Below, piece by piece: positions 13,299 through 33,852 of a stretch of DNA of 64,000 bases. Numbering within the stretch: the first letter of the stretch is position 1; each line of letters begins with the position of its first letter. The notes beneath the pieces were generated by a model. That model searched no databases, was not told the DNA's origin, and saw only the letters and a list, made by a program, of their open reading frames with translations. The DNA lies in assembly GCA_004431415.1 (NCBI GenBank), contig QPMI01000601.1, positions 62,001 to 126,000 of the forward strand. Reading direction: 5' to 3'. Source of the stretch: Cyanophora paradoxa CCMP329. Its lineage: Eukaryota > Plantae > Glaucophyta. The translations under genes were made by a program, and so were the position numbers.

Positions 13299-16200
13299 AT
13301 GAGTTTTAATTATCCAGCAAATCTACAAACAATACCAGGAAGTGGTGGTAAAACAAACGCGAAACATGTGAATTTCGATAATATCACCATCAAAGGGTCG
13401 GCTTCTATTGATCAGAGCGCAGATAAACCCAGTAAGACGCAATCCAGAGAGCATGCTTTATCGCTGAATCAAACAGACCCAAACAGAGAAGATGTAAGTA
13501 TTGCTTTCAGTTTGGGAGACGTTAAAAAAAACGAAGTTGCCGAAATTAAAGCAACAAGAAGACAACGGAAACTTAAAACAAGTAAAACCCATCCCGATAT
13601 TCCGACGCGTTTCGATAGTGGGCGATTAGTGTTTAATGTTCAAGATGAGAAAGGTAAACAGAATACAGGTCTAAGAATTTATAATGAAGGTAGCACACCA
13701 ATCGTCGAGTCATCACAAATCTTACAAGTAGGTAGTTTTCCTAATGCGAATCAAGTATGTATCACAAATAATGTATACCCAAAAGACATTACTTATGATT
13801 TTGCGAAAAATGAACCTTTTGGGTTTTTTACTCCGAAAGACGTTCACCAACAAAAACCATCAATAACCATTAATAGTAGTCCCACTCAACCAGTAGCGAT
13901 CCATTTACACCCCGATCTTGTCGAAATGGACCGGCACCTTTTACCTTTGGTCACAAACACCAAAGACCTTGGTATTAGAACCCGACAATGGCGAAATATC
14001 CATGGAAGCAATGTCTATGCAAATGGTGAGAAACTTGTTAGTGAGAAAACTTTAAGAGAAATTATAGAACATTACGGACCTAATGGACCAACTGTTCCAT
14101 TTCCTATTCCTTATCCAAATGGACCACCAGATCTTACACCAAAGAAACAACCTGGCAGAGAATACACAGCAGAAGAAGATGTAGCATTTGGGCAACATAT
14201 CGTAAGTTGGGAACAGGTGCGAAACAAACCAATTATCGAACCTAAAAAGCAAATAGATGAACAATATTTACCGCCTGAAATCGATATTTTAGAGATTGAT
14301 GATTACCAATTTGTCCCAGAAGAGGAAGAGTATTTACCTGACGGTTTTGACCCACAGGAATATGAGTATGATCAGTTTGACCCCAATGAGGAGGAGATAC
14401 TACCAGATGGCTTAGATCCACAAGAGTTTGAGTATGAGCAGAACTATGAACCTGATGAGGAGTATTTACCAGATGGTCATGATCCACCAGCTGTTGATTA
14501 TGAGCAACCATATGAACCCCATGAAGAATTATTACCTGATGGATTTCGCCCAGAGATTTGGGAATTCTTTCCTGATTATGAACAAATTAATAATAAACCT
14601 GCAAAGTATCCCCCAGAGGATCACAATCATGATTGGGACGAGATCTTAGGCAAACCTCAAAAGTATCCACCAGAGGATCACAGGCATGATTGGGGTGAAA
14701 TTGATGGAATACCAGAAGAATTTCCACCAAGCAAACATGAACATATTTGGGATGAGATTAATGACCAACCAGAGTTTGCAAAAGTGGAGCCTTTGGCAAC
14801 CCTAGGGGTTTCTCTTTACCAGACTTGCAATGTCCCTGAAAGGATCTTTTTGAATGAACACTATGTTCATGTGAATGGGACACTTGCGAATTCAGCTATG
14901 AGAGGACCACTTCATATTAGGACATTACCAGGCTCTTTTGAAACCCCACCACCACCAGGAGCAACCATACCAAATATCTTTGTGTCAAGCTACATGGAGG
15001 CTGACATTCCCACAGATACATTCAGAGTCCCAACAGACCCAGCAACCTACCAAAATTACAACTCTGCTATACAGGTTCATGTAGCAGATGTAAGCAGCTT
15101 AGATGGTTCAAGACCAATGATAGTATTCAGCAGAGATAAGTATTCCTACATTCCCATAGTGGGAACTGCAAATGATAATTATGGAAGGGCAGAGCTTGCA
15201 TGGATTAAAACAGATTATGGTGGGGTTCTGGAAGCCAATCAGAGGATGGCTGCAAAAAACATTCACAACGAAAATATATCGAGAGTGGTAACAGAAGATT
15301 ACCTAACGGCTGTAATTCTCGTTAATTTTGTTACTCTTGCGATGCTTGGAAATTATGTAACAAAACCTGAACTTGCCGCGGAATTATCAAAATATCTTCC
15401 GCTTGTTGGTGGGACAATCACAGGAAACCTTACAGTTAATAGTAATATTTACAGTAGCAATATTGAGACCAGCAACCTAAAAGTGAATGGAATTCTTACA
15501 GTTGGTTCAGGCAATTTTAATACCATGAACCAACTTTACAGGGAATGGTATTCTATCACAGCAAGTAACGATCCCGCTTCTAATATTCCAAATTGCCTTT
15601 TTGCATGGAAAGCCTCAGGAGTTCATGGTCAAAATGCTGCCTCATCAATTCTTTACAATAGAGTTTCCTCAATCGTTCCATCTATAACTGTTAGTTCCAC
15701 AGGAAGTCCCTACTACTCATCCAATATCGCTATAAATAATCAGATGACTTTAACAAGCGATTCAGGGTCATACTTAGCAAATTCAACGACGACAAGAACA
15801 TTTGATTGGTCACAAGGTTTGACATTCTTCTATATTGGTAGATATCATTTAACAAGCACAAGTTCTTCTCATACTCATTTACGAGTGGTAAAATCAATAT
15901 CGCCAAGGCGAGATGCTTACTATGGAGTAAGAGGCTCAACAGTTTTGGGAACAACGGCTTTTGGTATAAATGGTGTTCCACAACCTAACATTAGTTTCAA
16001 TATTCCATCTTTGGTAAATAAATGGTATTACTCAGACCAAACCATAACTTCTACAAGCTACACAGTTGGGCTAAATGGTGTGGATGTGGGAACTCTCACA
16101 GGAATTAATAATTATTTACCTGATTCTACTATCAACGATTTTGGAATTGGTTCAATCACAGGTGGAAGCATTGCTGAAATTATTGTATTCAACAGAGCAT

Positions 16201-19200
16201 TAACCGCAGCAGAAAAACAACAAGTGAGATACTATATCCAACAAATGTATGGATTTCCAATTACTCAACCTCTCAATATCTACAGAGGGTTAAAGATCAC
16301 ATCACCAGATACAGTGATTGATTATCTCACTGTAACAAGTAATGCGAATTTACCACACCATCCAACATCAAATGTGGTTCAAGGTTGGATACAAAACCAC
16401 ACACACACGAAAGCGCAAATTACAGATTTCGCCCATACGCACACCAAAGATCAGATCACAGATTTTGCCCATACTCACACCAAAGATCAGATCACAGATT
16501 TTGCCCATACTCACACAAAAGATCAAATAACAGATTTTGCCCATACTCACACAAAAGATCAAATAACAGATTTCGCCCATACTCATTTATGGGAGCATAT
16601 CACAAATCCTCCCTTAACCTTCCCACCTGATTCACATACTCATGATTATTCTGAAATTACAAACTCTAACCACAGGCACCCATGGAGCGAAATAGATGAG
16701 CAACCAAAATTCGCATCAGCAGGAAATTTATTAACAGATTTCCAATTTGGTGTAAGTCTCTACCAAAAGATAGACATTGCCGAAAGGTTACAATTAAATG
16801 ACTATTACGTTAATCGAAAAGGAATTGAAGCAGGCACCACAATGGATGGCGAATTATACATTAAACAACCTTCAAGATCTCAAATGGTTTCAGCAGGTGG
16901 GGTGGGGGTTATAGATACCAAACCAGGTCTGTTTTTGACAAGTTATTATAATGATGATATTCCATTAACAGCAGGTTTACCACCACTTCCATTAGATCCA
17001 GTGAGTTATGATGATAAAGACGCCATTTTACAAGTGAACGTTACAGATGTAAGCGCAACCGATGGATCAAGACCGAAAATAATATTTAGTCGCTCGAAAT
17101 TCAATTATGCACCACTTGTGGGACAACCAAAAGATGATTTCGGGAAATGTGAGATGGCGTGGATCAAAACATTAGCAGGTGGCGCCCTTGAAGTCAATCA
17201 GAGAATGGCGGCAAAAAATTTACACAATGAAACCCTTTCGGGTGTAGTCACAGATGATTACCTTGAAAGCAAAAATTATGTAGATGATACAGAACTTGCA
17301 GCAGTTCTTGAAGATTATGTGACAAAATCAGAACTTGATGTATATGTGACTGAACCTGAACTTAATGTAGCATTATCTAATTATCTTCCTCTCACAGGTG
17401 GAACCATCACCAGCAACTTGGTTGTGACAAGCAACCTAACAGTTGGAGGGAAAATACAGATGGGAACAGGAAGCATATTTGAGATTAAGAATGATTATTA
17501 CTATCGAATCACTTCCAATTTTGATCCCGCTTCTAACATTCCCAATTGCCTTTTTGCATGGAAAGCATCAGGGACAGAAGGGCAATCAGCAACAGGAACT
17601 TCCATTTTTAATCGAATCTCATCAAGTATTCCATCACTTCCTGTTATTGGAAGTCCTTATTATGCATCAGATATTGCTATTAACAATCAAATGAGTTTAA
17701 CAATTGAACAAGCTAACAACTTTGCAATATATTCTATTATAACTCGAACTATTGATTACTCAGCCGGGTTAACCTTTTTCTTTGTTGGAAGATATGGAAG
17801 AGCAACAAGTGGGGCAGATTTCCATTTTAGATGTGAGAAATCAGCAGCTCCAAATAGACAATTGCGTTATGGAACAGTTACGTGGTCTTCAATTGGTATC
17901 AGCTCATTCGTAATTAATGGTGTAAGTCAAACAAGACCTTCATTTACTGTTCCATCTTTTGCAAATCAATGGTATTACTCTGACCAAACCATAACAGCAG
18001 ATAGCTACACAGTAGGATTTAATGGAGTTGATATTGGGACAACCACAGGAACCAATTATTTACCCGATTCAACAGTGAATCTTTTTGGAACGGGTTCTCT
18101 CTTTGGAGGTAGCATTGCTGAGATTATTGTATTTAACAGAGCATTAACCGCAGCAGAAAAACAAGAAGTAAGGTATTACATTCAACAAATGTATGGTTTC
18201 CCCAATACTCAACCAATCTTAACTCGGGAAACTCTTAATATTGTAGGAAAAGACAGATTAACACTTAGCAATTTGGAAATACCCACACACACTCACACAA
18301 AATCACAAATAACAGATTTTGCCCACACACATTCCCGATTAGAGATTCCAGATTTTGCTCATGTTCACACAAAAGATGAGATTTCAGATTTTGACCACAC
18401 ACATACATGGAACAGTATAACAGATAAGCCTGTAACATTTACACCTTCACCACATCCACATTTATGGAGTCATATTACGGATAGACCCACCTTATCAGCA
18501 GTTGCAACAAGCGGAAATTATGATGATTTAATTAATAAACCAACATATACAGCACCCACAAATTTCGATGCTACAAGTGGTATTTCCACAGACTACACAG
18601 GAGATTGGAGAGGTTACATCGGGCAACCATTGGAGGAGACAGACACTTGGGCAAACACATGGGTTGATGGTGATTTTGATTGTAGTAGCTGTAAGATGTA
18701 TTGGACTGTCCCAGCAGGAATGAAATCATGTTATATCTATTATACCTGTCAGTATAACAGTAGATACTTTGATGTAGTGGGAATTGATTCATCGACAAAT
18801 ACTTATGTTTATTCAAGAGTAAATGCCTATGCTCCTGCTATTCAGCCTTCTCAATATAAACAGTTTGTTGGAATAAATTGTGAAGGACTTGTTAAAGTTG
18901 GTGTTCATGGACAAATAGGAAGAATTTATCTTCCAGGTCCGATTACTGTTGGTTGGAGCAAAAACCCCGCTGTGTCGTCACACAGTGGTTACTTCCATTG
19001 GGATAATATCTACGGAAAGCCAACAGCTTCTACGTCTGTCGGTCCTCATTCCCACACTAAATCAGAAATTACAGATTTTGCACATACACACACAAAGGCA
19101 AATATTACAGATTTTGCCCATACTCACACTAAATCAGAAATCACGGATTTCCCAACCTTAGACCCATTTGTAGCAAATACGATCACAGCAAATAATACCA

Positions 19201-19697
19201 TGTATGTGGGATCCGGTCAAATTTACCAACCAGACTCTCCTTTATTCTACGAACAGTGGTTCTTCCACAATTCCGCGAACATATACGATAAAACACTATT
19301 ATGTCGTGGCAATGCTTACGCAAGAGCATACTATGCGATGGATGAAAAAGACAATGGTAAGATTGCGAAACTTGTCTCAGAACAACGGGTCAATAAAGAC
19401 CAGTATATACAGACAGGGAGTTTTTCAAAATCCTTAGCAATCACAGGTCCGGGTCATTGGGGATTTCCACAAGTTGTCACATTCCCAAAAGCGTTTGCAG
19501 AAGCCCCAGCAGTCGTTCTCAATTTAAGAGATGGGTATAATGGTGGTTCATATGTATTGGTATATGGTGTCACAAGTTCCACAACAACAACATTTACTAT
19601 TTATGCAACAATTTCGGCAAATAGAGAATACAATGAAAGCATTGGACTTTTCCACTATCAAATGACTTATATTGCAACAGGGAAGATGGTAGCATAG
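13299..19697 (+). CDS. Large fibre/adhesin-like virion protein (2132 aa) with duplicated LamG/ConA-like modules
   Basis: Phage-tail-like HTHTKDQITDFA and LSAVATSGNYDDL repeats. Two ~510-aa modules each end GGSIAEIIVFNRALTAAEKQ. YLPL.GGTIT repeats; C-terminal VTFPKAFAEAPAVV. N-terminus homologous to the element B fibre. Confidence 0.8.
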   Translation: MSFNYPANLQTIPGSGGKTNAKHVNFDNITIKGSASIDQSADKPSKTQSREHALSLNQTDPNREDVSIAFSLGDVKKNEVAEIKATRRQRKLKTSKTHPDIPTRFDSGRLVFNVQDEKGKQNTGLRIYNEGSTPIVESSQILQVGSFPNANQVCITNNVYPKDITYDFAKNEPFGFFTPKDVHQQKPSITINSSPTQPVAIHLHPDLVEMDRHLLPLVTNTKDLGIRTRQWRNIHGSNVYANGEKLVSEKTLREIIEHYGPNGPTVPFPIPYPNGPPDLTPKKQPGREYTAEEDVAFGQHIVSWEQVRNKPIIEPKKQIDEQYLPPEIDILEIDDYQFVPEEEEYLPDGFDPQEYEYDQFDPNEEEILPDGLDPQEFEYEQNYEPDEEYLPDGHDPPAVDYEQPYEPHEELLPDGFRPEIWEFFPDYEQINNKPAKYPPEDHNHDWDEILGKPQKYPPEDHRHDWGEIDGIPEEFPPSKHEHIWDEINDQPEFAKVEPLATLGVSLYQTCNVPERIFLNEHYVHVNGTLANSAMRGPLHIRTLPGSFETPPPPGATIPNIFVSSYMEADIPTDTFRVPTDPATYQNYNSAIQVHVADVSSLDGSRPMIVFSRDKYSYIPIVGTANDNYGRAELAWIKTDYGGVLEANQRMAAKNIHNENISRVVTEDYLTAVILVNFVTLAMLGNYVTKPELAAELSKYLPLVGGTITGNLTVNSNIYSSNIETSNLKVNGILTVGSGNFNTMNQLYREWYSITASNDPASNIPNCLFAWKASGVHGQNAASSILYNRVSSIVPSITVSSTGSPYYSSNIAINNQMTLTSDSGSYLANSTTTRTFDWSQGLTFFYIGRYHLTSTSSSHTHLRVVKSISPRRDAYYGVRGSTVLGTTAFGINGVPQPNISFNIPSLVNKWYYSDQTITSTSYTVGLNGVDVGTLTGINNYLPDSTINDFGIGSITGGSIAEIIVFNRALTAAEKQQVRYYIQQMYGFPITQPLNIYRGLKITSPDTVIDYLTVTSNANLPHHPTSNVVQGWIQNHTHTKAQITDFAHTHTKDQITDFAHTHTKDQITDFAHTHTKDQITDFAHTHTKDQITDFAHTHLWEHITNPPLTFPPDSHTHDYSEITNSNHRHPWSEIDEQPKFASAGNLLTDFQFGVSLYQKIDIAERLQLNDYYVNRKGIEAGTTMDGELYIKQPSRSQMVSAGGVGVIDTKPGLFLTSYYNDDIPLTAGLPPLPLDPVSYDDKDAILQVNVTDVSATDGSRPKIIFSRSKFNYAPLVGQPKDDFGKCEMAWIKTLAGGALEVNQRMAAKNLHNETLSGVVTDDYLESKNYVDDTELAAVLEDYVTKSELDVYVTEPELNVALSNYLPLTGGTITSNLVVTSNLTVGGKIQMGTGSIFEIKNDYYYRITSNFDPASNIPNCLFAWKASGTEGQSATGTSIFNRISSSIPSLPVIGSPYYASDIAINNQMSLTIEQANNFAIYSIITRTIDYSAGLTFFFVGRYGRATSGADFHFRCEKSAAPNRQLRYGTVTWSSIGISSFVINGVSQTRPSFTVPSFANQWYYSDQTITADSYTVGFNGVDIGTTTGTNYLPDSTVNLFGTGSLFGGSIAEIIVFNRALTAAEKQEVRYYIQQMYGFPNTQPILTRETLNIVGKDRLTLSNLEIPTHTHTKSQITDFAHTHSRLEIPDFAHVHTKDEISDFDHTHTWNSITDKPVTFTPSPHPHLWSHITDRPTLSAVATSGNYDDLINKPTYTAPTNFDATSGISTDYTGDWRGYIGQPLEETDTWANTWVDGDFDCSSCKMYWTVPAGMKSCYIYYTCQYNSRYFDVVGIDSSTNTYVYSRVNAYAPAIQPSQYKQFVGINCEGLVKVGVHGQIGRIYLPGPITVGWSKNPAVSSHSGYFHWDNIYGKPTASTSVGPHSHTKSEITDFAHTHTKANITDFAHTHTKSEITDFPTLDPFVANTITANNTMYVGSGQIYQPDSPLFYEQWFFHNSANIYDKTLLCRGNAYARAYYAMDEKDNGKIAKLVSEQRVNKDQYIQTGSFSKSLAITGPGHWGFPQVVTFPKAFAEAPAVVLNLRDGYNGGSYVLVYGVTSSTTTTFTIYATISANREYNESIGLFHYQMTYIATGKMVA
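16398..16586 (+). repeat. 36-bp coding tandem repeat (HTHTKDQITDFA x5)
   Basis: Directly visible; further copies near 18290-18410 and 19047-19150. Confidence 0.9.
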
Positions 19698-19737
19698 ATA
19701 TTCGTTTATTTTTCTATCCTTCTTAGTAAAAGAAGCA

Positions 19738-20592
19738 ATGGGTGAATACAATCGAGTTCAACTGCCCATTTATTCGCTTGGATCGCCAGCTATGCACTTT
19801 CGACAACATGAAGTTAATGATGAAGTCCGCGGTTTAGAATCCACAGAGAGACCCAATTCTAATGGTAACTCCTTTGATAAAAACTCGATAATTCGTGTAA
19901 AAGAACTCCGAGCCGATAAGAATTCGGGTGTAGTTAAAACCACACGACTACTTGTAACAAATGCTAACTTCTTTCAACCGACAAATGGAGGTCCTGATGC
20001 ATACAGTGTGGATTTAAAAGCCCTCGATTTCGATAAGAATTCTGCCGCTGCTACAATTCGTTCAGGTGGAGCGTTTATTGGCGGTGGTTGTCGTGTATCC
20101 GGTCAACTTTCTTCATCGATTTCGTATAATGATGTCCCAGATACTCTTGAACAGAATGTTGAAGACCCCCAACGAATACGTTTCTATACACCAGTTGCAC
20201 AGCAACCTTTTCTACATTTCTATGTTGCTTCCTCTGTCACTCTTGAAAATTCGGAATTGGTTATTATAACAGGAACTGATCGAGTAAGAAGAAATATTCC
20301 GCTTCCCACAGCAATGCTATCTATGTGCAGAGCAAACAACAATCAAACAGGTCATAATTACCTATTCTTTGTTCAAGCATCAAACCATTTCGGTCGAGGA
20401 TATTGTGTTTATAACAATTTGACATTTACCTATGATTTGTTTGTAACTGAGGTTGGAGTTTACAATACTATGATTATGGGACTGAGGACAGATATAGCAG
20501 CTGTTTCGGCACTTCGAGGGGTAAACGTTGCAGATATCTTCACAACAGGGTTTTATTCGGAACCAGATATAATCGATGACCCCACCCCATAA
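19738..20592 (+). CDS. Putative structural protein, paralog family with 20616, 59880 and 60364
   Basis: Shared N-terminal domain SL..PA.H..QH...D.V.GL.STE...N.F......R..ELR.DK..G.VKTT.LLVTNANF...GGA.IG.G. Confidence 0.7.
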   Translation: MGEYNRVQLPIYSLGSPAMHFRQHEVNDEVRGLESTERPNSNGNSFDKNSIIRVKELRADKNSGVVKTTRLLVTNANFFQPTNGGPDAYSVDLKALDFDKNSAAATIRSGGAFIGGGCRVSGQLSSSISYNDVPDTLEQNVEDPQRIRFYTPVAQQPFLHFYVASSVTLENSELVIITGTDRVRRNIPLPTAMLSMCRANNNQTGHNYLFFVQASNHFGRGYCVYNNLTFTYDLFVTEVGVYNTMIMGLRTDIAAVSALRGVNVADIFTTGFYSEPDIIDDPTP

Positions 20593-20615
20593 AAGATATA
20601 TCCCTTTAATGTAAA

Positions 20616-21446
20616 ATGGCTGCCCCAATACCAGAACGAATTATTACACCCCAACTCTCATTAGCAGCACCTGCGAATCACGTTTTGCAGCATGCTACCT
20701 TTGATGATGTAGAAGGTCTCCAATCCACAGAAGTGCAACCTACCATGAATACATTTGGTTCCACCCACAAACTGAGATTGCAGGAACTCAGGTGTGATAA
20801 AAATAATGGTATAGTTAAGACAACGAAACTCCTTGTCACAAATGCAAACTTTTCTGCCCACTATGGAGACCCAGACAGTTATGGTGATCCTCTTTCTACT
20901 TATTCTTTTGAATCTCGGTCGGGAGCTATTAACTGCAAAACGGGGGGAGCATATATTGGTGATGGTCTTCGGATTGGTGGAGCTGTTGGTGCGCCTCTTT
21001 TCGTAAATGATCAACCCAATCCCATTGATCCCAACACCAGAATTCGCACCTATGTCCCCAGTATGAATGCACCATATATTATCAAGATCTTCCCAATTGT
21101 TGTGAATGAGCAGACATCAGTAGTTGATTCTCTTGTTGAGATTGGTGACCACTACAAGGTGGTTGTCGATATCCCACCAGATGTTTATGCTGTCTGTCAA
21201 GTAGAGGGTGGAACCCCAAATATTGCAGTTGTGATCACGCCATATGACAATTTCGGAATTGCTTATCATGGAGTGAATTTCGGTCTTGAAGATTACCAGT
21301 TCTTGGTGAGAGCCACCAGGTTTGGTATCTACAAATGCATTCTCTATGCTGAAAGAACCGATGCTATCGCAAAACAGAATACATATGCAGAATATTACGG
21401 CACAAATCGCTACTTCCCCATTTTCGGGCAGGATACTGCTCCATAG
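20616..21446 (+). CDS. Putative structural protein, same family; near-identical to 60364..61198
   Basis: 276-aa ORF whose protein is almost identical to the element B copy, with mostly synonymous differences. Confidence 0.8.
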   Translation: MAAPIPERIITPQLSLAAPANHVLQHATFDDVEGLQSTEVQPTMNTFGSTHKLRLQELRCDKNNGIVKTTKLLVTNANFSAHYGDPDSYGDPLSTYSFESRSGAINCKTGGAYIGDGLRIGGAVGAPLFVNDQPNPIDPNTRIRTYVPSMNAPYIIKIFPIVVNEQTSVVDSLVEIGDHYKVVVDIPPDVYAVCQVEGGTPNIAVVITPYDNFGIAYHGVNFGLEDYQFLVRATRFGIYKCILYAERTDAIAKQNTYAEYYGTNRYFPIFGQDTAP

Positions 21447-21473
21447 AAATCTCAGGTATATATAGAGAGAGGG

Positions 21474-21746
21474 ATGGATGATAAAACAAAGAAATTCATA
21501 GAATCTGCAATGATGGTTCATGGTGATGCTAAATTCGATTACAGTGAGACTGTCTATAAGAAAGCACAAGAGAAGATATCCGTTAGATGTTTACAATGTA
21601 ATAAGACGTTCCAAACCTACGGATTTAATCACATTAAGGGATCGGGTTGCCGACAGTGTTCCAAGAAACACTCACATGCATACAGAAAAAAGACTACATG
21701 GGGAATCGTTATAGAAGAGAAACCGATTATGTTGTATTTTGATTAA
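21474..21746 (+). CDS. Stand-alone Zn-ribbon protein (one repeat unit of the 227..958 endonuclease)
   Basis: KFIESA..VHG..KFDYS.T.Y.KAQEK.SVRCLQCNK....H.KGSGCR.C; homolog at 61221. Confidence 0.8.
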   Translation: MDDKTKKFIESAMMVHGDAKFDYSETVYKKAQEKISVRCLQCNKTFQTYGFNHIKGSGCRQCSKKHSHAYRKKTTWGIVIEEKPIMLYFD

Positions 21747-21892
21747 AGTTTCGAAAGAGAAATTACCATCTTCCCACATTTACCTTTGGTGATTATACAG
21801 GTATCAAAGCAACTTGGACATGTTTTATGAAAATATACCATTATGATATCGACCAACTCATACGGAAACACTTTCGCTAAGATGGTTCGCAT
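21743..21892 (-). CDS. 49-aa microprotein with F-box-like motif and CxxC (below ORF-track cutoff)
   Basis: My translation is MRTILAKVFPYELVDIIMVYFHKTCPSCFDTCIITKGKCGKMVISLSKL*; clear homolog at 27395..27553. Confidence 0.7.
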   Translation of the reverse strand: MRTILAKVFPYELVDIIMVYFHKTCPSCFDTCIITKGKCGKMVISLSKL

Positions 21893-21932
21893 CCTACTAA
21901 TTTCGTTTTTAATTTTTCTATATAATTCATAA

Positions 21933-22334
21933 ATGAACTATCATCGGGGATTTCACGTGATGTTGGATTACAAATTCGGAAAGGAGATTGCGATAGGAGT
22001 AGAAAACTTGGAGACCACAACAAGATGGTTAATGCAATTTTTACAATCTATTATTCAAGAGCAAGGTATCCGAGTTGTTCACAAGCATTGCGAGATTTTC
22101 GATGGTGGTGTTTCCCCACCGGGTTTTGCGATGGTTCTTCTATTAGATGAAAGCCATTGCACCGCTCATTGTTACTCCGATCAAGGAATGTTAGCAATTG
22201 ATTTATTCACTTGTGGAACGGAAGCGGAAAGTAAGACCTCAGTAATATCACAATTGATAGATGAGAGAATAACAGAGATCTTTTCAGGGTTGGAGAAAGC
22301 GGAGAAGCATAGAGTGAGGCGATTTCCGAGTTGA
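21933..22334 (+). CDS. speD: S-adenosylmethionine decarboxylase proenzyme (short prokaryotic-type)
   Basis: G.HVMLD...F...PGFA.VLLLDESHCTAHCY...G.LAIDLFTCG, with the E-S autocleavage motif. Confidence 0.88.
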   Translation: MNYHRGFHVMLDYKFGKEIAIGVENLETTTRWLMQFLQSIIQEQGIRVVHKHCEIFDGGVSPPGFAMVLLLDESHCTAHCYSDQGMLAIDLFTCGTEAESKTSVISQLIDERITEIFSGLEKAEKHRVRRFPS

Positions 22335-22377
22335 TCTTACTTATAAAACAAAGAATTCATTCTTTTCTTACTATAAA

Positions 22378-22952
22378 TGGTAACAGATAACAAAGGTAAC
22401 AGATTTATTCTTATTTTCAGTAAGGGTAACAGAGGTAACGGATTTTGCGCAACTTTTTGAAAATCTCGATCTTAGGGGAAAGGTTGGGAAAAATCCGTTA
22501 CCTCTGTTACCCTCAATTGTTTATCATTAAACAAAGATGAATTATTCAAGAAATCATTACTTATTATGGTAAGGGTAACAGATTTTTTCTTATTTCCAAT
22601 AAGGGTAACAGATTTTAATTGAGGTAACGGATTTAATCGAGGGTAACAGAGGTAACGGATTTTGCGCAACTTTTTGAAAATCTCGATCTTAGGGGAAAGG
22701 TTGGGAAAAATCCGTTACCTCTGTTACCCTCAATTGTTTATCATTAAACAAAGATGAATTATTCAAGAAATCATTACTTATTATGGTAAGGGTAACAGAT
22801 TCATTCTTATTTTCAGTAAGGATAACAGATTTTAATTGAGGTAACGGATTTAATCGAGGGTAACAGAGGTAACGGATTTTGCGCAACTTTTTGAAAATCT
22901 CGATCTTAGGGGAAAGGTTGGGAAAAATCCGTTACCTCTGTTACCCTCGATT
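22378..22952. repeat. Three 217-bp tandem units, each carrying the GGTAAC iteron hairpin of 5913..6013
   Basis: GGGTAACAGAGGTAACGGATTTT...AAAATCCGTTACCTCTGTTACCCT repeated with 217-bp period, plus extra GGTAACAGAT half-sites. Confidence 0.92.
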
Positions 22953-23725
22953 AATTGGAGATCATGCAGTAACCATCTCTTCCAACAAAATACGCCGCAA
23001 TCTCATCGATTATTTAATTGGACATGATGCACCACAGATACAATTTTGATACAGTAAAAAACAGAATCCAATCTTATCAATTGTTTAATTGGACATAATG
23101 CAACTATGGGGTCATTTTTGATACAGTAAAAATCTCAACCGAATCTCATCGATTGTTTAATTGGACATAATGCAGTAACCATCTCTTCCAACAAAATACG
23201 CCGCAATCTCATCGATTGTTTAATTGGACATAATGCAGTAACCATCTCTTCCAACAAAATACGCCGCAATCTCATCGATTGTTTAATTGGACATAATGCA
23301 GTAACCATCTAATCCAACAAAATACGCTGCAATCTCAACGATTGTTTAATTGGACATAAGGCAGTAACCATCTAATCCAACAAAATACGCCGCAATCTCA
23401 ACGATTGTTTAATTGGACATAATGCAGTAACGAGTGAATTATTTTCATCCGATATCTCATCGATTGTTTAATTGGACATAATGCAGTAACGAGTGAATTA
23501 TTTTCATCCGATATTTCATCGATTGTTTAATTGGACATAATGCAGTAACGAGTGAATTATTTTCATCCGATATCTCATCGATTGTTTAATTGGACATAAG
23601 GCAGTAACCATCTAATCCAACAAAATACGCCGCAATCTCATCGATTGTTTAATTGGACATAATGCAGTAACGAGTGAATTATTTTCATCCGATATTTCAT
23701 CGATTGTTTAATTGGACATAATGCA
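22947..23725. repeat. Array of a 32-bp conserved core (ATCTCATCGATTGTTTAATTGGACATAATGCA) alternating with 27-40-bp variable segments
   Basis: 12 full cores plus 1 degenerate core; periods of 59, 63 and 71-72 bp; four classes of intervening sequence. Confidence 0.9.
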
Positions 23726-23876
23726 ACTCTGTGTGAATTTTTGCGATTTCCGATAGAATGGGCGGTGGACTACTTCAATCGTGATTATATCAATCGTGAT
23801 TATATCATAAATTTATGTTCCTTCAATCGAGATTATATCAAATTTGCATATTAATCGCGTTTATTACGTTAAAATC

Positions 23877-24170
23877 ACACATAGAGAAACGCGGCGTTTA
23901 AACCGGAGGCAAGATCTAATTAAGATCCAGTTATATTATTCGGAAAATTATACAAATTCACGATTGATTTAAGTAAGACAAATCGAAATTAAGATAAATT
24001 TACCATAGAACATCAATAAATTATAAATGAAATACACAAAAATCAAAATATTTAAATAATTCGATAGATTTCACACAGATTATCGATTGATTGATACAAA
24101 ATATACGAGAGATATAAACAAGATCAATTAAGATACGCCGAGGGTTTAAACGCCGCGTTTCTCTATGTGT
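23877..24170. repeat. Terminal cassette of element A: 294 bp bounded by perfect 28-bp inverted repeats
   Basis: ACACATAGAGAAACGCGGCGTTTAAACC (23877..23904) and its exact reverse complement (24143..24170); homologous to 63044..63326. Confidence 0.9.
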
Positions 24171-26225
24171 CGCGTATTCGAGAATATCGCTTCCCACTTT
24201 AAAGGGAACGAAGTCATCGAATACATTGTATTTCGGAAGATATTGCATGCCTTTCAGTATCGAAGGGTAGCACTTCGCCATATCGACGGCTGTGTAGGTG
24301 GCTTTCGGGTTCGGCTTATAGAAATAGCCGCTTAGTGCGGATCGCTTGTAGTGCGTGAGAATTTCGCGCATGTTCGGACTGTAATGTGAGATATTCGTCG
24401 CATTTAGAAGCGACTCGCGGAAACCCTTCCCGATTTCACAGACCTTATTATAATACTCCTCTGTTTCGAAATCTTGCTCAATAAAGTGGTCTGTTGTGCG
24501 CGGATCTTTGATAGAGAACATGGAGCCATTAGCTTTGAATGTGATGCTGTCGATCTGTTTCGATGGTGTAAGCTTCACAGCGGGCTCATATCGCATTTTC
24601 AGGAACGTAAATAGAAGCCCTTCCAGACCTTCGCGCCCAGTATAAAGAATGCGGATGAAACTGCGCTCGTCAGGCGATAGTTTAAGTTGCGTGATCTTTA
24701 ACAAATCCTTGGATGTGTGCGCGAAGATATCGTAAGTAAGACACGTCGGAATTTTATAGAGTGCTAACGAAGAGTTGGACTTAGGAACATGATTATCGAG
24801 CTCTTCGACCTCCATCTTTGCCATGCGCATTTCGAGCGACTTGATGTTATCGTTGAATATATAGATGTGCTTGTTGTGAATCATAAAGTGAATATTGCGG
24901 GGAAAGATGTTTTTGTTAATTGATTCCGCCGCGAATTTGTATATTAACTTACCGTCGACATCAAAGACGCGGAAGCCTGTCTGAATTCTCTTACAGAATT
25001 TCTCGATATGGCGGAGGGTGAGAGCCAGAGAGTCGCCAGGTGTGCGTTCGCGACCGTGAAAGAATTTATAGAGACCGTCGTACGACATAGTTAAGTCAGT
25101 ATATCGCGGTTTTGGCGCCTCCTGACACTTCTTAATGGACGCTCCCCATGTGGAGATGATCATATCATAGCCGCAAGCGTTAGATGTCGATGATTTGGGA
25201 AGCTCAATAACATCTTCGAACTCAGACGCGTTTGGATTTAATGTATAGTCTGTGAATTTGCTCATAATCGCGGTGCATCGCATACTGTCCATGAGCTCCT
25301 CATCCAGAAACGCGTAGCGATTTCCAGGAATAGCACCGGCTCCGTCATCTTCGACACCTTCGTCCCCATCGATCGCGATCTCATGAACAGTTATAAAGGC
25401 ATCATCGACACTGCCGCCAAAATCATCGAAACCTTTGCGTAGTTTTTTCTGTTCCTCGGTTGGTGGTGTCTTAAAGAAGAACATCTCGTATGCTTGTCCG
25501 AAAGTTCCCAGACGAATCTTCAATTCATCGTAGTTTTCGAGTAAATCGAAGATTGAATCTCTCTCTTCCGAATAATAACGATTTTGAGCGGTGAGAATTC
25601 CATACACTCTATCGATTTTTGCCAGAGCAAAGTTTCTCAACACCCTCACCGAAACTGTCTCTCTTATATTGCGGTAGGTGACAAAGGTTCTGTCTGGTAT
25701 ATTTAATTCGGGAATTCCGGGAATAACAATTACCTCCGTCGACCGAGCACCGGATCCAGGCGCCCACATCTTGAACGTAATTGTTGCGAGAGTTTCCGGA
25801 TCGTATGCGGCGATTGGGTCGAGAATAGTGCGTTTAATCGCATCCTCTACCGCTTTTAGTTTACCTCTCTGCTGCTTCGCTTCGAGTTTCGCTTCTTTCG
25901 CTCGTTTCTGTTCTTGCTTGCGATCGAAGCGCTGTAAACGCTTAGCCTCTTGTTCTTTTTGCTTCTGCTTTTCTATATTAACTTGGGTGCGAGCGGCGCG
26001 CTTTTCTTTCCGCTCTGCCCTGCGGAAAACGCGGGGATTAATGATTCCATTCAGAGTATCCCGAATGTCGATCAGCGTTTGGAGCTTGGGCTTCCGATTC
26101 ATTGTGTTGTGCATCGCCCAATGCGCCTGTTCTTCGGTTAGCAAATCCTGACTCAATCCCTGCATAATGTATCCGATAATCTCCTCCCGAACATTGTTAG
26201 CGATTCTGTTGGCTGCGCGCGGCAT
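24171..26225 (-). pseudogene. 5' part (685 codons) of a divergent protein-primed PolB, truncated by element A
   Basis: Motif A-like YTAVDMAKCYPSIL near the break. The ORF runs ...ILEYA then directly into the A terminus (THRETRR = ACACATAGAGAAACGCGG...). N-terminus homologous to that of the element A polB. Confidence 0.7.
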
Positions 26226-26393
26226 CTCTATTAGTTCTTTTAAAATAACCGGAGAAAATAATTTCGGCGCAATCTACCAAATCCTCCTTTTCATACCCTT
26301 GTTGTTAATTCCTTAAATGCTTTTTCGACGGATACGGGGAATAAAAAGGGAGGTAAAAATTAATCATTTTTTGCGTCGTACGGATACTTTCCG

Positions 26394-26807
26394 CTACGAA
26401 TTTTTCGCGTTCTCGACGACATGCTTTCGGGGTCTCCCAGCGGGCTTTTGCGGCTGGGGCTTCACCGGCGGATTCAGCTTTCGTTCCGCTCTTTTTCTGC
26501 GTTGGTATTCCCGTGCCTTTTCCCTGATTTTCTCCCGATACTCTTCATCGTCTTGGTATCGCTGCTGTTTACGAATTGCGATCTTTTGTAGCTGCTCCGG
26601 GGTAAATACGGTCGCTTCCCCTGCGGCTAATCGCTCTTGCTTTTGTCTCTGATGCTTGTTTCGCTGCCGCTCTGCATCTTTCTCGCGTTTTAGTCTTAAT
26701 CTCTCCGCTTTCTCCTCTTCTGTGATCACCTTCTTCGGTCGCCCTGGTCTGCGCTTTTCTTGCTGTGCCGCCATTGCCTCTTGGTTTGAAATCTTGGGTT
26801 TCGCCAT
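26394..26807 (-). CDS. Basic AT-hook-type DNA-binding protein
   Basis: RPGRPKK and AGRPRK motifs; syntenic with 3016..3252. Confidence 0.7.
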   Translation of the reverse strand: MAKPKISNQEAMAAQQEKRRPGRPKKVITEEEKAERLRLKREKDAERQRNKHQRQKQERLAAGEATVFTPEQLQKIAIRKQQRYQDDEEYREKIREKAREYQRRKRAERKLNPPVKPQPQKPAGRPRKHVVENAKNS

Positions 26808-26931
26808 TTACTATAACCGGAGAAAATAGTTTTTTGTCACTCTGTATTATTTCCCTTGCCCTTATATACCTTTTACCGAAACCTTCAATTTTTGCCCTCG
26901 GATCGATAGGAGCACCACCGAAATTCACCGC

Positions 26932-27345
26932 TCAATAACCGTTCCAGACGGTTCTTTCTTGTTGCTGAGGATATACATAAGGGTTTGTTAAGCTGTCATC
27001 GTCGCCTAATGCCATTTGATCCAATCTATACATCGGATAAGGTGAATCAGCGCGCAAATGCCCTTCCACAAATTCGGGACATGATCGCCTTCTAATATGC
27101 TCTACATGCACGTCCTCTATCTGAGCGGTTTCAATATTAGAACTCATAGCCGCGGGCACAGGCGAGGGCGATCGAGATCTTGGGTGGTTGTGATTGTCGC
27201 TGTGGTTAGAATATACAGAAAGGCGCCTACCTCCATTGTCTTCATCGCTTATATCAACCTCTACGGTTGTGTCGCAGCAAGAGTTGTGGCACGTGCTTGT
27301 GAAATGCAAATGAAACATTTCAATGCATTGTGTGATGAAATTCAT
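26932..27345 (-). CDS. Cys/His protein, homolog of 2589..2807
   Basis: IEMF..H....CHN.CCDT..E.D.SD conserved between the two elements. Confidence 0.75.
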   Translation of the reverse strand: MNFITQCIEMFHLHFTSTCHNSCCDTTVEVDISDEDNGGRRLSVYSNHSDNHNHPRSRSPSPVPAAMSSNIETAQIEDVHVEHIRRRSCPEFVEGHLRADSPYPMYRLDQMALGDDDSLTNPYVYPQQQERTVWNGY

Positions 27346-27394
27346 CGACCCTACAAATGGGCAACGTATTAAATATCGGAGAAAATAAAAGGGA

Positions 27395-27553
27395 ATGAGG
27401 GCTTTACTTGCTCGTGTGTTCCCCTACGAATTGGTCGACCTTATAATGCTGTTTATGGAGCCGACATGCCCGTTTTGCAAGGGCATTCATATTAAGACCC
27501 GCTCTAAATACGGGCGGGTTCAGCTTTGCCTTGCGGATATTCACAGCCATTAG
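27395..27553 (+). CDS. 52-aa microprotein with F-box-like motif and CxxC
   Basis: My translation is MRALLARVFPYELVDLIMLFMEPTCPFCKGIHIKTRSKYGRVQLCLADIHSH*; homolog of 21743..21892. Confidence 0.7.
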   Translation: MRALLARVFPYELVDLIMLFMEPTCPFCKGIHIKTRSKYGRVQLCLADIHSH

Positions 27554-28233
27554 CGGATATGGCGTTTACCACCGAGCATTGCGGCATAATTTGCTGGTGC
27601 GGTCGGCACTATATGTGCATATTGCGGGGCGACCGATTGCTGACGAGTTACGGCTTGCGCATCTGTCTTGTCCTCCTTTTTAATCTCCTCTACGTCGACC
27701 TTTTGCTTTAATCCGAGTTTCGAGATCTCTTTCTTTACGAGCCCCTTTAATTTCTTGCGTTCGTTATAATCTTGCATCCATTTCTCGTAGTTTGACACTT
27801 TCATTTCAAGATCTCGCACTTTCTCTTCGAAGCTCATGACAACGTCGACTGGAACAGTGTGTTTTTGATAGGATCCGCGCTTTTTAAGCTCGGTTTCGGC
27901 GGCTTTCGGGACGTCTTGTGTCTTGTGCTGGCTTGCAACAACTTGCGCTTTGAGTACTTTGTCGGTTGCTTCATCAACAGAGCCGCCTCCAATCTGTGGT
28001 TTTACAGTAGCTAAATCCTCCATTTGGCGTTTACCGCTATCTTGGTTTCCCTTGTCCGCGGTGGCACTCGCAATAATTGCCTCTTGCTTGGCAACCTCCT
28101 CTGGCGAAGTGTCTACAAGATATTCGGGCATTTCGAGACCGCCACCCGACGTTAATCCAGACTCTTCAAGTCCGCGATTTGGATTACCAGAAGCGACCGT
28201 TTGAATGGTTTGAGGCTTCTTTCGGTAGACCAT
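27550..28233 (-). CDS. Hypothetical charged/coiled-coil protein, homolog of 1831..2562
   Basis: Synteny downstream of the ATPase and a shared C-terminal coiled-coil pattern. Confidence 0.7.
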   Translation of the reverse strand: MVYRKKPQTIQTVASGNPNRGLEESGLTSGGGLEMPEYLVDTSPEEVAKQEAIIASATADKGNQDSGKRQMEDLATVKPQIGGGSVDEATDKVLKAQVVASQHKTQDVPKAAETELKKRGSYQKHTVPVDVVMSFEEKVRDLEMKVSNYEKWMQDYNERKKLKGLVKKEISKLGLKQKVDVEEIKKEDKTDAQAVTRQQSVAPQYAHIVPTAPANYAAMLGGKRHIR

Positions 28234-28235
28234 GA

Positions 28236-29153
28236 TTATCTTCTCTTACATTTGATTAACATTTTCTTTTTCTTAGGCGAAATTTGGGAAAGTTTTGGGA
28301 TACCTTCAAGCTCACGTTCAAATTTGGATAAAGTTTTACAGACAGTTGTCGAATCTTTGACAGGCGGCGGTTTTGTAGCTTGCTCCTCTTGCTGTTTGCG
28401 CTTCTTTTCTTCAAAAGCCGCCCGCTTGTGGAATTTAGTAAACGGATGGTCATCGATCATATCGGCTTTTTCGACCCACCATCGCACAGAATACCCGGTA
28501 TTATCGTGAATGATCGCTTGGTAGCTATGACAGAATTCTTGGAACATGCGCTTGAAACTCTCTTTATCCATGTTCCCGAATTCCTCGTGATATGCTTCAA
28601 ACTCTCGCATGTTTGACCAGCTTAGGAATATGATATACTCCGCATTGCTGCGAATGATCGTTGACAGCTTTGTTAGTTTCTGCGATATTAAAGCGACGCT
28701 ACAAAACGTATGACGACCTTGCGCCATCAATTTATTTAGCAAATGATCGCGCGAAAGATCGATAGTTCCGGACTCCAAACAATCGTCGAGCACGATAAGA
28801 ATATTCTTTGGTTTCTTACCCGCAATGATAGCCTTTTTGCGGGCTTCTATGATCGACTCTACGTATTCCGGTTTCCAGGTATCATGCACTTCGTCTGTTA
28901 TTTGACCCCAGAAACCGTTAAAACTCGTAGGACAGAAAACCAGAACATACGAGATCTGGTCTTCGAGTTCTTTGATCAGCCACTTTAAGAATACCGATTT
29001 ACCACAATTGGTTTTCGCCAATAGGAGAAATCGTGCGGGAAGTTTCACCCTTTGTTTCGGGTTCCATTCTTCGAGATCCATGGGCGTCGTCCCTTTTTGC
29101 ATTCTTTCACTATAAAAACAATAGAAAAATAAGACTGACTGTGGTAATCTCAC
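28236..29153 (-). CDS. A32-like packaging ATPase (true start probably ~29102 or ~29081)
   Basis: Walker A AKTNCGKS, Walker B ILIVLDD, AQGRH, ISQ, IRSN; homologous to 1020..1802. Confidence 0.9.
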   Translation of the reverse strand: MRLPQSVLFFYCFYSERMQKGTTPMDLEEWNPKQRVKLPARFLLLAKTNCGKSVFLKWLIKELEDQISYVLVFCPTSFNGFWGQITDEVHDTWKPEYVESIIEARKKAIIAGKKPKNILIVLDDCLESGTIDLSRDHLLNKLMAQGRHTFCSVALISQKLTKLSTIIRSNAEYIIFLSWSNMREFEAYHEEFGNMDKESFKRMFQEFCHSYQAIIHDNTGYSVRWWVEKADMIDDHPFTKFHKRAAFEEKKRKQQEEQATKPPPVKDSTTVCKTLSKFERELEGIPKLSQISPKKKKMLIKCKRR

Positions 29154-29160
29154 GAATTCC

Positions 29161-30473
29161 TTAGCTACTTACTCTGCGAATACCATCAGCTCCGATTATC
29201 ATGATATTATGAGCGAGGGCAATGCACTGAATTTGCATCTTCTGATAAGCGGCACCCGCATACCACTCCTCATTACCGACTCCACCGGCTGTGACACCAT
29301 TGAATTCGAAGACCAGATCGAACGCCGATGTGCCTGTGGCATCGATGTAGCCCGTGTTCTCTTGGTTGAGAAGCGACGCCTTTCCGTTTCCAGCACCGAA
29401 GTAAATGCCAGTGAGAGCGGGGTAGCTTGTGCTCTCGGTAAAGATCGCCGAATTATATTTATCTTGAAGTTCGGTCGCGGCAATCATGAGAGGAAGCGAA
29501 GTATTCGAGTAAAGGCGGTTATTGTTGAGTTCCACATAGAAGTTCACAGCGTTGGTTCGGAGTGCACGAGGAGCCAGAACCGAGAGAGTTCCGTTGTTCA
29601 CCTTCGTCTTCGCGTTTTGGCGCACAGAGAATACGAGAGTGTGGATGAGACCCGCACCTGTGAGTTGCGAGAGATTGACTCGCGAACCGGAGGCGGTCGG
29701 CTGGAAATCTGTGTGGAGGAAACCGATTTCGTTGTAGGGGATCGCGATACCAGTCGATTTTACACGGGCAATGGTCTCAGATACAACCGCCTCATCGGCA
29801 TTTACGACCTTGCAGATAATGCGGGGTTTCAGCACTTGAAGGGAAGCGCCATTGTTGGTAACCGCAATATTGGCAACATTGTTAGTATCCTCAATGATAC
29901 CATCACCAATCGCCTTGAATTCGATTTCGACCACGATCTCAGAGTTCAGAGCGCAAAGTGGGAACATCGCCTTCTCGAAAGGAGAGGGTAAATCGATTTC
30001 GTAGGTTCCACCGACAGTGTTACCAGCGGTTCCGACAAGACCACCCACATAGCGAAGTTTCTTATCGAGTTCGCCCTGTTCGGTCATCAGTAGAAAATAC
30101 TGGGTGACGAAATCCTCTGGGACAACGTAGCGGAATGAAGCGTGAGAGATTTCGATGCGCTTAATTAGCGATCCAATAACGCGAAGGTAGCCAGTAGTTC
30201 CAGCGACACCATTCGTGAGATCAGTGAGGGTGATCGGGTTAAGATCGAGTTGCAGCGCGAGACCATTCAGGAAATGGTAGCGGGGATTTTGAAGACAACT
30301 CGGTTGCCGAGAGCGCTGGGTGGCTCAGTGTCGGGGGCGACCAGAACTCGAAGTGGCTTAGTGCCAGAGGACGTTCCAATGACCAGCGACTTGTTTAGGA
30401 AATAATCCTTGTAGTCGTCGGTGGTGAGCATAGATTTCAGCGTTGGGCGCTGGAATTGGCTGTTAGTCTCCAT
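29161..30473 (-). CDS. Major capsid protein (double jelly-roll, ~437 aa); one frameshift at ~30283
   Basis: Adding one C to the CCCC run joins ORF 30267..30473 to 29161..30087 (VVFKIPRYHFLNGLALQLDL...SLIKRIEI...YEIDLPSPF...FPLCAL...IVVEIEF). Beta-rich; lies between ATPase and penton. Confidence 0.8.
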
Positions 30474-30520
30474 GAGCGTTTCTTCTCTTATCTTTGGGTT
30501 CAGAAAATAATTTACAGGGC

Positions 30521-31447
30521 TCAGTAGAAATTCATTTCCGGCGGTGCGTCGTAGGTTTCGATTTCAAAAGTGAAATAATGCGCCCAAACCCCGAAATCTA
30601 AGAGAGCGCCGTCATGGTCGATGAGCTTAATCGTGAGGCGGTCGAAAGATTTTAATTCGCGGAACTCGCGAACGAGAGGCACAGTAGTGGACGTGTCAAA
30701 GTGGTAGATATCACCGTGTTCGAGTTCCTGTGGGATTGGAATGCGCATGAAATAACCGTCGACGTGCTTGTTGACTGAGCGAATAAACGGCGCGAATTCG
30801 TCAATATATAGCCAGATCATTGCAGCCGGGGTCTCATCTCCACGAGTATAGCCGCGAATGCGTCGATTGAGTGTCACAGTTCCCGTCCCAGGATTAAACA
30901 CAAGGAATGTATCGCTTGCAAGAGGGGTAAATGTCTCGTAAACATATAGTTGAATATCTTTGAAACCGAATATTGCGAGTTTCTTAGCGATTGCTTTGCG
31001 GTTACTGGATTTTCTGAGTGTTTCAGGGGAAGCTTTGGAGAACTTGAACCAAAAGTTACTATCACTGAAAAACTCATAGATCTTTGAAGTAGTATTATAG
31101 CGGCATTTAATATATTTTCCACCGAAATCTGAAAGGCGAGCTGCTTCGAGTCTTTCTGTGACTTTTGCGGCAAGGTCGTCTTTGGTGTAAAATCCTTTGG
31201 GGATTGTGATGGTCACGAATCCAGAATCCGAAGCTGTGACCGAGAAATAGAGTTCCATGCGCTCGATGGTTGCACCAGTGGCGTCGATATCGTTCGTCAC
31301 AGTTGAAAGAACATTCGGAACCGTTGCCTGCACCAGGCGCACCGATTTTACGTTGTCATAGCGACGGGGTAATGTCACTACATACTTGTTTGGCTGTGTG
31401 AACTCCTCGTCGCGATCATCGCTCGAAAAGCTCAGGTATTCTTTCAT
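30521..31447 (-). CDS. Minor capsid (penton-like, single jelly-roll) protein 1
   Basis: SSDDRD.....NKYVVTLPRRYDNVKSVRLVQATVPN, ITIPKGFYT, LYIDE, FDRLTIKLIDHDGALLDFG....FTFEI. Confidence 0.8.
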   Translation of the reverse strand: MKEYLSFSSDDRDEEFTQPNKYVVTLPRRYDNVKSVRLVQATVPNVLSTVTNDIDATGATIERMELYFSVTASDSGFVTITIPKGFYTKDDLAAKVTERLEAARLSDFGGKYIKCRYNTTSKIYEFFSDSNFWFKFSKASPETLRKSSNRKAIAKKLAIFGFKDIQLYVYETFTPLASDTFLVFNPGTGTVTLNRRIRGYTRGDETPAAMIWLYIDEFAPFIRSVNKHVDGYFMRIPIPQELEHGDIYHFDTSTTVPLVREFRELKSFDRLTIKLIDHDGALLDFGVWAHYFTFEIETYDAPPEMNFY

Positions 31448-31463
31448 CTTACTATAATAGATT

Positions 31464-32309
31464 ATGAAAAGAATAACAATAAATTGCGACAGTAGAGACC
31501 TTGAAAATGGCGTGCTGCACTTGAAAACGCGCCTTAATAATGTACGACGATTTCGTGTGCTATCAGCTGAGATTCCTAATAGCTCTTATGTTGTTCCGCC
31601 CGATCAGACAATAACTATAACGCTTCTGAACGAAGAGCCCACAGTAATCCCCGCATCCAAAATGATAGCACCGATTCCCAGCGTAAACGACTATTATTAC
31701 GTCGATGCTGATAACGAACGATATCCGAAAGAGAGAGCTTTAAACAGGGATGCTTTACTCGGTTTTTCAGGCGGTTCTTTTAATCCACTCGGTCTCTTCC
31801 CGGTTTCCTATTCTCTCGCTCTGTCTACCAACCGCTTCGTGTTCTCATCTCCAAATAGCCCTTTTACATTAGAGAGCTCAGACCAGGAGTTCTGTGATTG
31901 TCTCGGCATAGAACCCGGAGTGGTTTACGCCAGCACAACAGAACCAGTGACGGTTCCACTCAGAGATTACCCCAGTCGCTATGCATTTACGTGCCCGAAA
32001 ATGGTCGACTTTAATGCGATTCCATATATTTACCTTGATATCGAAGAGCTCCGCCCGTTTACCAAATTCGCAGCGGTTACAGGTAGACAGAACAATGTCG
32101 ACGACTCCTATCTATTGCGAATTCAGATGAATTCGGACTTTGGTAGATATTCCTTTTACCACGAACCGAGCGCAAGCATCCCTTTCGTAAATGTCACATC
32201 GCAACTCGATTTAGATCGTCTCACAATTTCGCTTCGAAAATGGCGGGGCTCTGTTGCGGATATAAACGGTCTCTCATTCTCGTTCCAGCTCGAAGTGATC
32301 ACCGACTAA
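31464..32309 (+). CDS. Minor capsid (penton-like) protein 2
   Basis: INCDSRD...L...LNNVRRFRVLSAEIPNS, YIYLDIEEL, LDRLTISLRKWRGSVADINGLSFSFQLEV. Confidence 0.8.
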   Translation: MKRITINCDSRDLENGVLHLKTRLNNVRRFRVLSAEIPNSSYVVPPDQTITITLLNEEPTVIPASKMIAPIPSVNDYYYVDADNERYPKERALNRDALLGFSGGSFNPLGLFPVSYSLALSTNRFVFSSPNSPFTLESSDQEFCDCLGIEPGVVYASTTEPVTVPLRDYPSRYAFTCPKMVDFNAIPYIYLDIEELRPFTKFAAVTGRQNNVDDSYLLRIQMNSDFGRYSFYHEPSASIPFVNVTSQLDLDRLTISLRKWRGSVADINGLSFSFQLEVITD

Positions 32310-32315
32310 GCGCTG

Positions 32316-33809: not shown

Positions 33810-33852
33810 TATCTTATATACTTCTTATATATCTTCTTTGTTTATAAAGAGG

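Follow-up and report, generated by a model that had tools for sequence, protein, structure and literature searches.

The window, by which we mean the whole analysed stretch of 64,000 nucleotides, contains the right parts of two elements of the polinton-like virus (PLV) type, referred to here as A and B. Element A (1..24170, forward strand, 40% GC) carries genes for an A32 ATPase (1020-1802, Pox_A32 above the cut-off), an SF3-type helicase (DUF5906, 4753-5805), a protein-primed PolB (pPolB; core at 7084-9096, split over ORFs) and an rve-like integrase (9764-11164), in addition to a patatin, a fibre-like protein of 2132 aa and an AdoMet decarboxylase. Its polymerase matches the Pfam family DNA_pol_B_2 with 37.1 bits against a cut-off of 25.8; the integrase matches rve with an E value of 2e-4, which is under the cut-off, and PF00665 is found in two of its three homologues. 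The DNA directly to the right of element A is not host DNA, it is the interrupted polymerase-like gene of element B (24171-26225, reverse strand). Since the end of A cuts this gene, A is nested in B.

The right part of element B (24171..63326) further comprises an A32 ATPase gene (28236-29102, reverse strand, Pox_A32 above the cut-off), a double-jelly-roll major capsid gene (29161-30563, reverse strand, read in two frames), a patatin gene and a fibre-like gene that is split by a retrotransposon. The polymerase-like gene of B scores 0.91-0.93 to PolB clusters of the atlas, which we treat as a lead, and has no Pfam match; no integrase was seen in the part of B that lies in the window. For the capsid gene, P0001, a 60%-identical relative of 29164-30324, reaches an atlas score of 0.98 to the Capsid_N/Capsid_NCLDV clusters, and a Foldseek search of its predicted model (pLDDT 60) against a viral library matches NCLDV major capsid proteins with E values of 1e-18 to 1e-9. 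Via this relative, the capsid of B is predicted to adopt the double-jelly-roll fold of NCLDV type. The capsid protein encoded at 29161-30563 has three matches among 1.84 billion representatives and its lineage possibly belongs to an unplaced NCLDV-like PLV group; groups of this kind are described in the accessible part of a recent preprint (bioRxiv 10.64898/2026.06.19.733378).

The insertion in the fibre-like gene of B is a non-LTR retrotransposon block (34459..55309, forward strand, 20.9 kb, 65% GC) with endonuclease, RT and a poly-A tail, flanked by a target duplication of 17-18 bp (34441-34458 and 55310-55327). It contains a 138-bp tandem array (37300-40400) within an ORF of 2827 aa, and its length is unusual for a single LINE.

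Both elements possess iteron-like dyads upstream of their right ends, at 22423..22954 in A (217-bp units, with a further copy at 5856-6052 directly after the helicase gene) and in the same layout at 62331..62803 in B (35-bp perfect arms). Each dyad has two 9-10-nt repeats per arm and a loop of 21-23 nt, and we take them, by resemblance, to be candidate internal replication origins. Between the dyads and the end of A, about 12 tandem units of 59-72 bp occupy 22955-23740; no such array is present in B.

When compared with each other, the polymerases of A and B show no BLASTP similarity (best E 3.3), the ATPases and patatins are 37-39% identical and the core genes 36-44%, whereas the terminal cassette and its neighbouring genes are 80-84% identical at the DNA level (81-84% for the right-end block 20565-22225 versus 60313-61811). 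From these identities, the end module seems to have been transferred recently between distant elements, and it may be read by its shape. Since a similar cassette accompanies unrelated polymerases, no single polymerase goes with this end structure, which could instead have a role in packaging or integration.

Terminal cassettes with co-varying arms and a predicted hairpin fold

Each element ends in an AT-rich cassette, located at 23877-24170 in A (294 bp, 29% GC) and at 63044-63326 in B (283 bp, 28% GC). In cassette A, an inner arm (23877..23904, forward strand) is the perfect complement of the outer arm (24143..24170, forward strand), which forms the right terminus of the element and ends in TGTGT; the interior between them (23905..24142, forward strand) is an imperfect palindrome. 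Cassette B is built likewise of an inner arm (63044..63071), an imperfectly palindromic interior (63072..63298) and an outer arm (63299..63326), all given on the forward strand, the last being the right terminus of B. In both cassettes the inverted repeat is perfect over exactly 28 bp, has the ends 5'-ACACA...TGTGT-3' and an arm-to-arm spacing of 227-238 nt, and the inner arm is directly preceded by AATC. With up to 9 mismatches allowed, the arm sequence occurs at only four places in the 64 kb, namely the arms of these two cassettes. The longest perfect local inverted repeat in 300 shuffles of the 1-kb context measured 13 bp (mean 9.5), compared with the 28 bp observed. The original prediction of AT-rich terminal cassettes of about 290 bp with inverted 28-bp edges is thus borne out for both elements, including their position. 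As only right ends lie inside the window, this end structure is known from one end of each of two elements.

The alignment of the two cassettes covers 300 bases at 80% identity. Five of the 28 arm positions (9, 10, 14, 19 and 24) differ between them, and full complementarity is nevertheless retained within each element, so that all five differing arm sites are compensated, just as had been proposed from the sequence at the outset. In the interior, compensation was found for only 1 of 10 changed pairs (Fisher p=0.002). With compensated arms and a mostly uncompensated interior, the arms appear to evolve in concert, as if one templated the other. The restriction of compensation to the arms points to a copying process that would be limited to the terminal 28 nt.

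Self-complementarity extends to the interior, at 55-57% of its columns; this feature, overlooked in the original prediction, makes the whole cassette an imperfect palindrome. In A, 144 of 253 interior columns are self-complementary, a score matched by none of 2000 dinucleotide shuffles (z 3.8), and in B 131 of 239 columns (17 of 2000 shuffles, z 2.6). Among 17 control stretches, 16 had a z below 2, the sole exception being one that includes the iteron dyad of B. The predicted fold of both ends, about 290 bases each, is a single long mismatched hairpin on a perfectly matched 28-base foot, with a 3x3 internal loop made up entirely of purines immediately above the foot, at the start of the interior. 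The contribution of the interior to folding stability is small in A, for which 13 of 100 interior shuffles were equally stable, compared with 0 of 100 in B.

The mismatches in this predicted hairpin are unevenly distributed between base classes. On the 3'-terminal strand, which is the A-rich forward strand, purine-purine mismatches exceed pyrimidine-pyrimidine ones (20:2 in A, 30:5 in B), most bulged bases are A, and the A/T skew amounts to +0.26 and +0.29 in the cassettes versus -0.15 to +0.11 in 10 other non-coding stretches; as A and B are homologous, their values for mismatch bias and skew do not represent independent tests. Substitutions between the A and B interiors fall on paired sites less often than expected (13 of 34 versus 19.9, p=0.005), a comparison that is partly circular as one of the two sequences served to define the pairing, and A and B are least alike at the apex (9 of 20 identical). 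Beyond the arms, the interior looks as if it were maintained through selection on shape.

Insertion sites and contig paths in public runs

The neighbourhood of both cassettes was followed in contigs from the public runs X1, X7, X9, X11, X14 and X19. These contigs were built with 31-mers, which exceed the 28-bp arm; hence, contigs would be split at the arm by solo or direct-repeat copies that have random host DNA on their inner side, or by inverted interiors. An empty-site allele was found precisely at 24170/24171 in four of four runs. At the other cassette, whose flank is a host repeat, an empty-site allele resumes at 63327, again in four of four runs (three samples). Behind the A-type outer arm, GC-rich loose ends at 24170/24174 are present in X1, X7 and X11. 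Taken together, the empty-site alleles and these loose ends identify the outer arm as the true terminus, and the claim that the cassettes terminate PLV-type elements agrees with this break precisely at the outer arm. Among the loose ends listed (21 of 26), those behind the A-type outer arm are GC-rich and have no AT-rich viral continuation in common; no such continuation stands behind 63326 among the 24 of 76 listed there.

At the inner arm, X14 yields one unbranched contig of 350 nt that consists of 56 nt of subterminal viral DNA (23821..23876, forward strand) and the full 294-nt A-type cassette and ends at its last base; its depth is 478, compared with 42 for a nearby low-depth GC-rich contig. 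X9 likewise contains an unbranched A-type contig of 331 nt over 23841-24171, although this run is shallow, informative only on repeated paths and probably too shallow to reveal single-copy flanks. In X1, X7 and X19 the A-type contig opens with viral bases, its start lying 2 nt inside the inner arm, and X11 shows a GC-rich loose end ahead of 23874. This break and loose end are most simply explained by an outer end whose host flank matches 3 bases by chance, alternatively by a rare solo or flipped copy. X7 and X14 derive from the same sample, yet they disagree on the contig break at the inner arm. B-type contigs continue without a break over the inner arm in the shallow X9, but in X7 they branch at it (depth 2643 versus 3220). 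No strand-changing joints appear in the A and B contig listings. In the X14 and X9 contigs, the A-type cassette is joined to a single inner neighbour and stands in a single orientation.

Contig depth is unusable for copy number, as the B cassette is about as deep as the interior in X1 and X9 (ratio about 1) yet reaches about 5 times its depth in X7, and run-to-run ratios track GC content. These inconsistent ratios consequently have no bearing on whether each element has two such ends.

The contigs also revealed further variation. Loose ends at 23921 and 24137 in X1 and X7 match the arm and then continue into about 235 nt of other AT-rich DNA, which probably reflects at least two more cassette types in the same organism. 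At 24073 in X1, X7 and X11, GC-rich DNA is fused to the outer third of the cassette, and these joins may stem from truncated or invaded cassette copies elsewhere in the genome. An A-type variant carries seven substitutions and one deletion at 24004-24057; an inversion of the apex only was rejected as its origin, as by eye there are too few changes for inverting an A-rich stretch.

Interpretation of the terminal structure

On the evidence at hand, the cassette is a real, non-trivial end structure that is neither an LTR nor a solo MITE. From its sequence and position, we read it as the last ~290 bp at the end of an integrated polinton-like virus, where it would provide protein-primed copying with a snap-back origin and end repair with a template, a reading to which we give about an even chance. 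The 3'-end strand would become single-stranded on being displaced, or where a fork moving out of the internal iteron dyads leaves a gap, and its last 28 nt would pair with the inner arm some 240 nt away, creating a short duplex end for which the far genome end is not needed. The protein-primed PolB would prime at the TGTGT terminus, sliding back on the dinucleotide repeat, before copying outer arm, loop and inner arm in turn, which would keep the cassette orientation constant. Trimming and refilling of the 3' arm, or its mismatch correction, against the inner arm would preserve the identity of the arms; the purine-mismatched remainder would be maintained by selection on shape alone. During integration, the integrase would join the free outer end to the target; the inner arm would be buried and unused, and no solo cassettes would arise. 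At the left end, the same long terminal repeat would likely recur in inverted form. Folding in vivo, the origin function, the repair route and this left-end arrangement are the parts of the snap-back reading that we infer. We count in its favour the pPolB and rve-like integrase of A, the arms that change in concert, the mismatch bias, the position at the terminus and the single A-type orientation, and against it that only two cassettes are compared, that the stability contributed by the A interior is small and that the polymerases of A and B are unrelated. A helicase, a pPolB and iteron-like dyads, the dyads as candidate internal origins, occur together in element A.

Elements of this scheme are known from other replicons. 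That an ACACA end suits slide-back protein priming, as had been noted from the start, is established knowledge (PMC5449611, available part). In Polintons, adenovirus and PRD1, a protein-primed PolB, a short slide-back repeat and inverted repeats that re-form a duplex origin on the displaced strand are likewise described, but there the two genome ends pair with one another, whereas here each end would pair with itself; in the accessible text of PMC11886824, the panhandles of PRD1 and adenovirus are proposed origins and homology-restoring structures for which direct evidence is lacking. A parallel in mechanism is offered by the protein-primed telomeres of Streptomyces, whose ends fold back, with repair on this folded form preceding the priming by protein (PMC5449611). 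In this Tpg/Tap end patching, a 3' end of about 300 nt folds back, its tip pairs with an internal copy, purine-purine pairs occur, priming is by protein and the tip is repaired. However, that system is bacterial and GC-rich, with several short palindromes and the Tap polymerase, unlike the one long AT-rich hairpin of a eukaryotic virus with pPolB and integrase, and we claim no homology; according to this source, no such repair has been reported for replicons of the adenovirus/phi29 type. Of the two end arrangements considered originally, the self-contained panhandle at each end is the best reading.

A different and less probable account, which we hold to be possible but doubtful, is that the free genome has covalently closed, incompletely paired hairpin telomeres, either poxvirus-like or formed via hairpin self-priming, and that, once the integrase has nicked behind TGTGT, the hairpin is opened out by host repair, the mismatches serving as a packaging signal. 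The predicted shape of the cassette, an AT-rich and incompletely paired hairpin, fits this account, as does the match of the capsid relative P0001 to NCLDV-type major capsid proteins. Poxvirus telomeres are also AT-rich imperfect terminal inverted repeats with a predicted fold that contains extra-helical bases, and according to the accessible part of PMC8956199 their mismatches are a requirement for packaging and work through structure, not sequence, which would fit the sharing of the cassette across unrelated polymerases. Poxvirus ends, in contrast, are covalently closed, occur as flip and flop forms and depend on a resolvase and a resolution site. Both forms would be expected after concatemer resolution or hairpin transfer, whereas the integrated ends studied here show one orientation (seen for the A type in the deep X14 and for the B type in a run of low depth) and a terminal ACACA of protein-priming type, and no resolvase family exceeded the cut-off in the 29 ORFs scanned, the nearest being a weak Endonuclease VII match inside the pPolB (E 0.007). 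A hairpin-priming model has been proposed for elements of Halocafeteria seosinensis, in which, according to the available part of the preprint (bioRxiv 10.64898/2026.07.28.741278), virophages and PLVs of subtype 4 carry terminal palindromes in their TIRs next to TSDs. These resemble the cassettes in that a palindrome with a proposed replication hairpin stands at the extreme end of an integrated PLV or virophage, adjoining the host junction. They differ in being short, near-perfect palindromes of 52 nt (gap limit 10 nt) that mostly accompany replicases other than pPolB, whereas the structures here are 283-294 nt long, imperfect, with purine-biased mismatches, and belong to elements that have pPolB-type genes, in B a putative one. 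It is unlikely, in our estimate, that A and B represent small integrating viruses with an NCLDV-like capsid whose poxvirus-style mismatched hairpin telomeres were frozen in unfolded form by integration, and which would thereby stand, as living intermediates, between Polintons with their protein-primed inverted ends and giant-virus lineages with closed hairpin ends, with the end as a portable module across unrelated polymerases. If the closed-hairpin account were true, it would bear on the origin of the hairpin telomeres of Nucleocytoviricota from Polinton-like ancestors, and the significance of the cassette would increase sharply if free genomes had closed mismatched hairpins.

Less probable again, and in our view quite unlikely, is a relic, that is, an old mini-element or a fold-back duplication of the two ends of the virus that was fixed at the terminus; the outer arm alone would then work as origin and integrase site, and the inner arm would remain identical through gene conversion or as a second site for the same protein. 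The layout of the cassette indeed equals a left end facing a right end, its interior halves are 55-57% complementary, like diverged repeats, and compensatory change is rare in the interior (1 of 10). Random decay, on the other hand, would yield neither purine-biased mismatches of 20:2 and 30:5 nor fewer substitutions at paired sites, and no TSD stands at the cassette flanks. Very improbable by comparison is an LTR-like unit, as had been suggested, which would be directly repeated at the left end and leave solo copies in the manner of an LTR or of the flanking module of a composite transposon. Short inverted repeats do bound the unit, and the GC-rich loose end ahead of 23874 in X11 and the branching of B-type contigs at the inner arm in X7 agree with such copies. 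The A-type contig, however, runs unbranched over the inner arm in X14 and X9 and starts on viral bases in X1, X7 and X19, the loose ends behind the outer arm are GC-rich with no common viral continuation among those listed (21 of 26, and none at 63326 among 24 of 76), and the ends are AC...GT rather than TG...CA. The suggestion of an LTR-like unit with solo copies conflicts with the indirect evidence of these A-type contig paths, the B type being less clear, and neither pair of flanks contains a TSD around the cassette. The same flanks, together with an inner edge that remains on viral DNA, speak against the cassette as an independent MITE.

Returning to the snap-back reading, a 290-nt end with a co-varying foot and strand-specific mismatches would be a short, synthesizable substrate with which snap-back protein priming could be set against hairpin priming. 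Evidence of this kind, on how PLV ends are copied, packaged and integrated, is called for in the part of the Halocafeteria preprint available. The view that the end structure was undescribed holds in part. Short terminal palindromes in PLV and virophage TIRs and a hairpin-priming model are already contained in that preprint as far as it was accessible, whereas the long, purine-mismatched form was not found in the literature searched. In full-text searches we found no long imperfect terminal hairpin in PLVs, although supplements and figures of preprints may describe longer palindromes; in the available parts of the sources, entomopoxvirus-associated PLVs, cryptophyte PLVs and Gezel-14T have TIRs without such a hairpin.

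Relatives in public sequence

As a search image, the cassette is of a kind missed by palindrome screens with short gap limits. The arm pattern had 0 matches in viral, metagenome and genome contigs, and no loci related by capsid gene, ATPase alignment or capsid alignment were obtained. Searches with the integrase and the polymerase returned 31 distant loci (23-37% identity; 282,011 bases), none of which contained cassette-like sequence (best E 0.065), a weak test given that most of these contigs lack ends. Perfect local inverted repeats of at least 16 bp occur in 8 of the 31 loci, none in the terminal form of about 290 nt. The only distant locus with a TIR pair (L028, about 242 bp) has no local inverted repeat in the part examined.

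Two of the distant loci contain palindromes in other positions. In the viral contig L031, which shows no similarity to the cassette, an intergenic imperfect palindrome with a 28-bp perfect part lies at 4657-4840, just upstream of a pPolB gene. In L013, from an integrase-bearing contig family, a 32-bp perfect inverted repeat spans 87 nt within 264-356, about 150 nt upstream of the first gene, and is also present at the start of L015.
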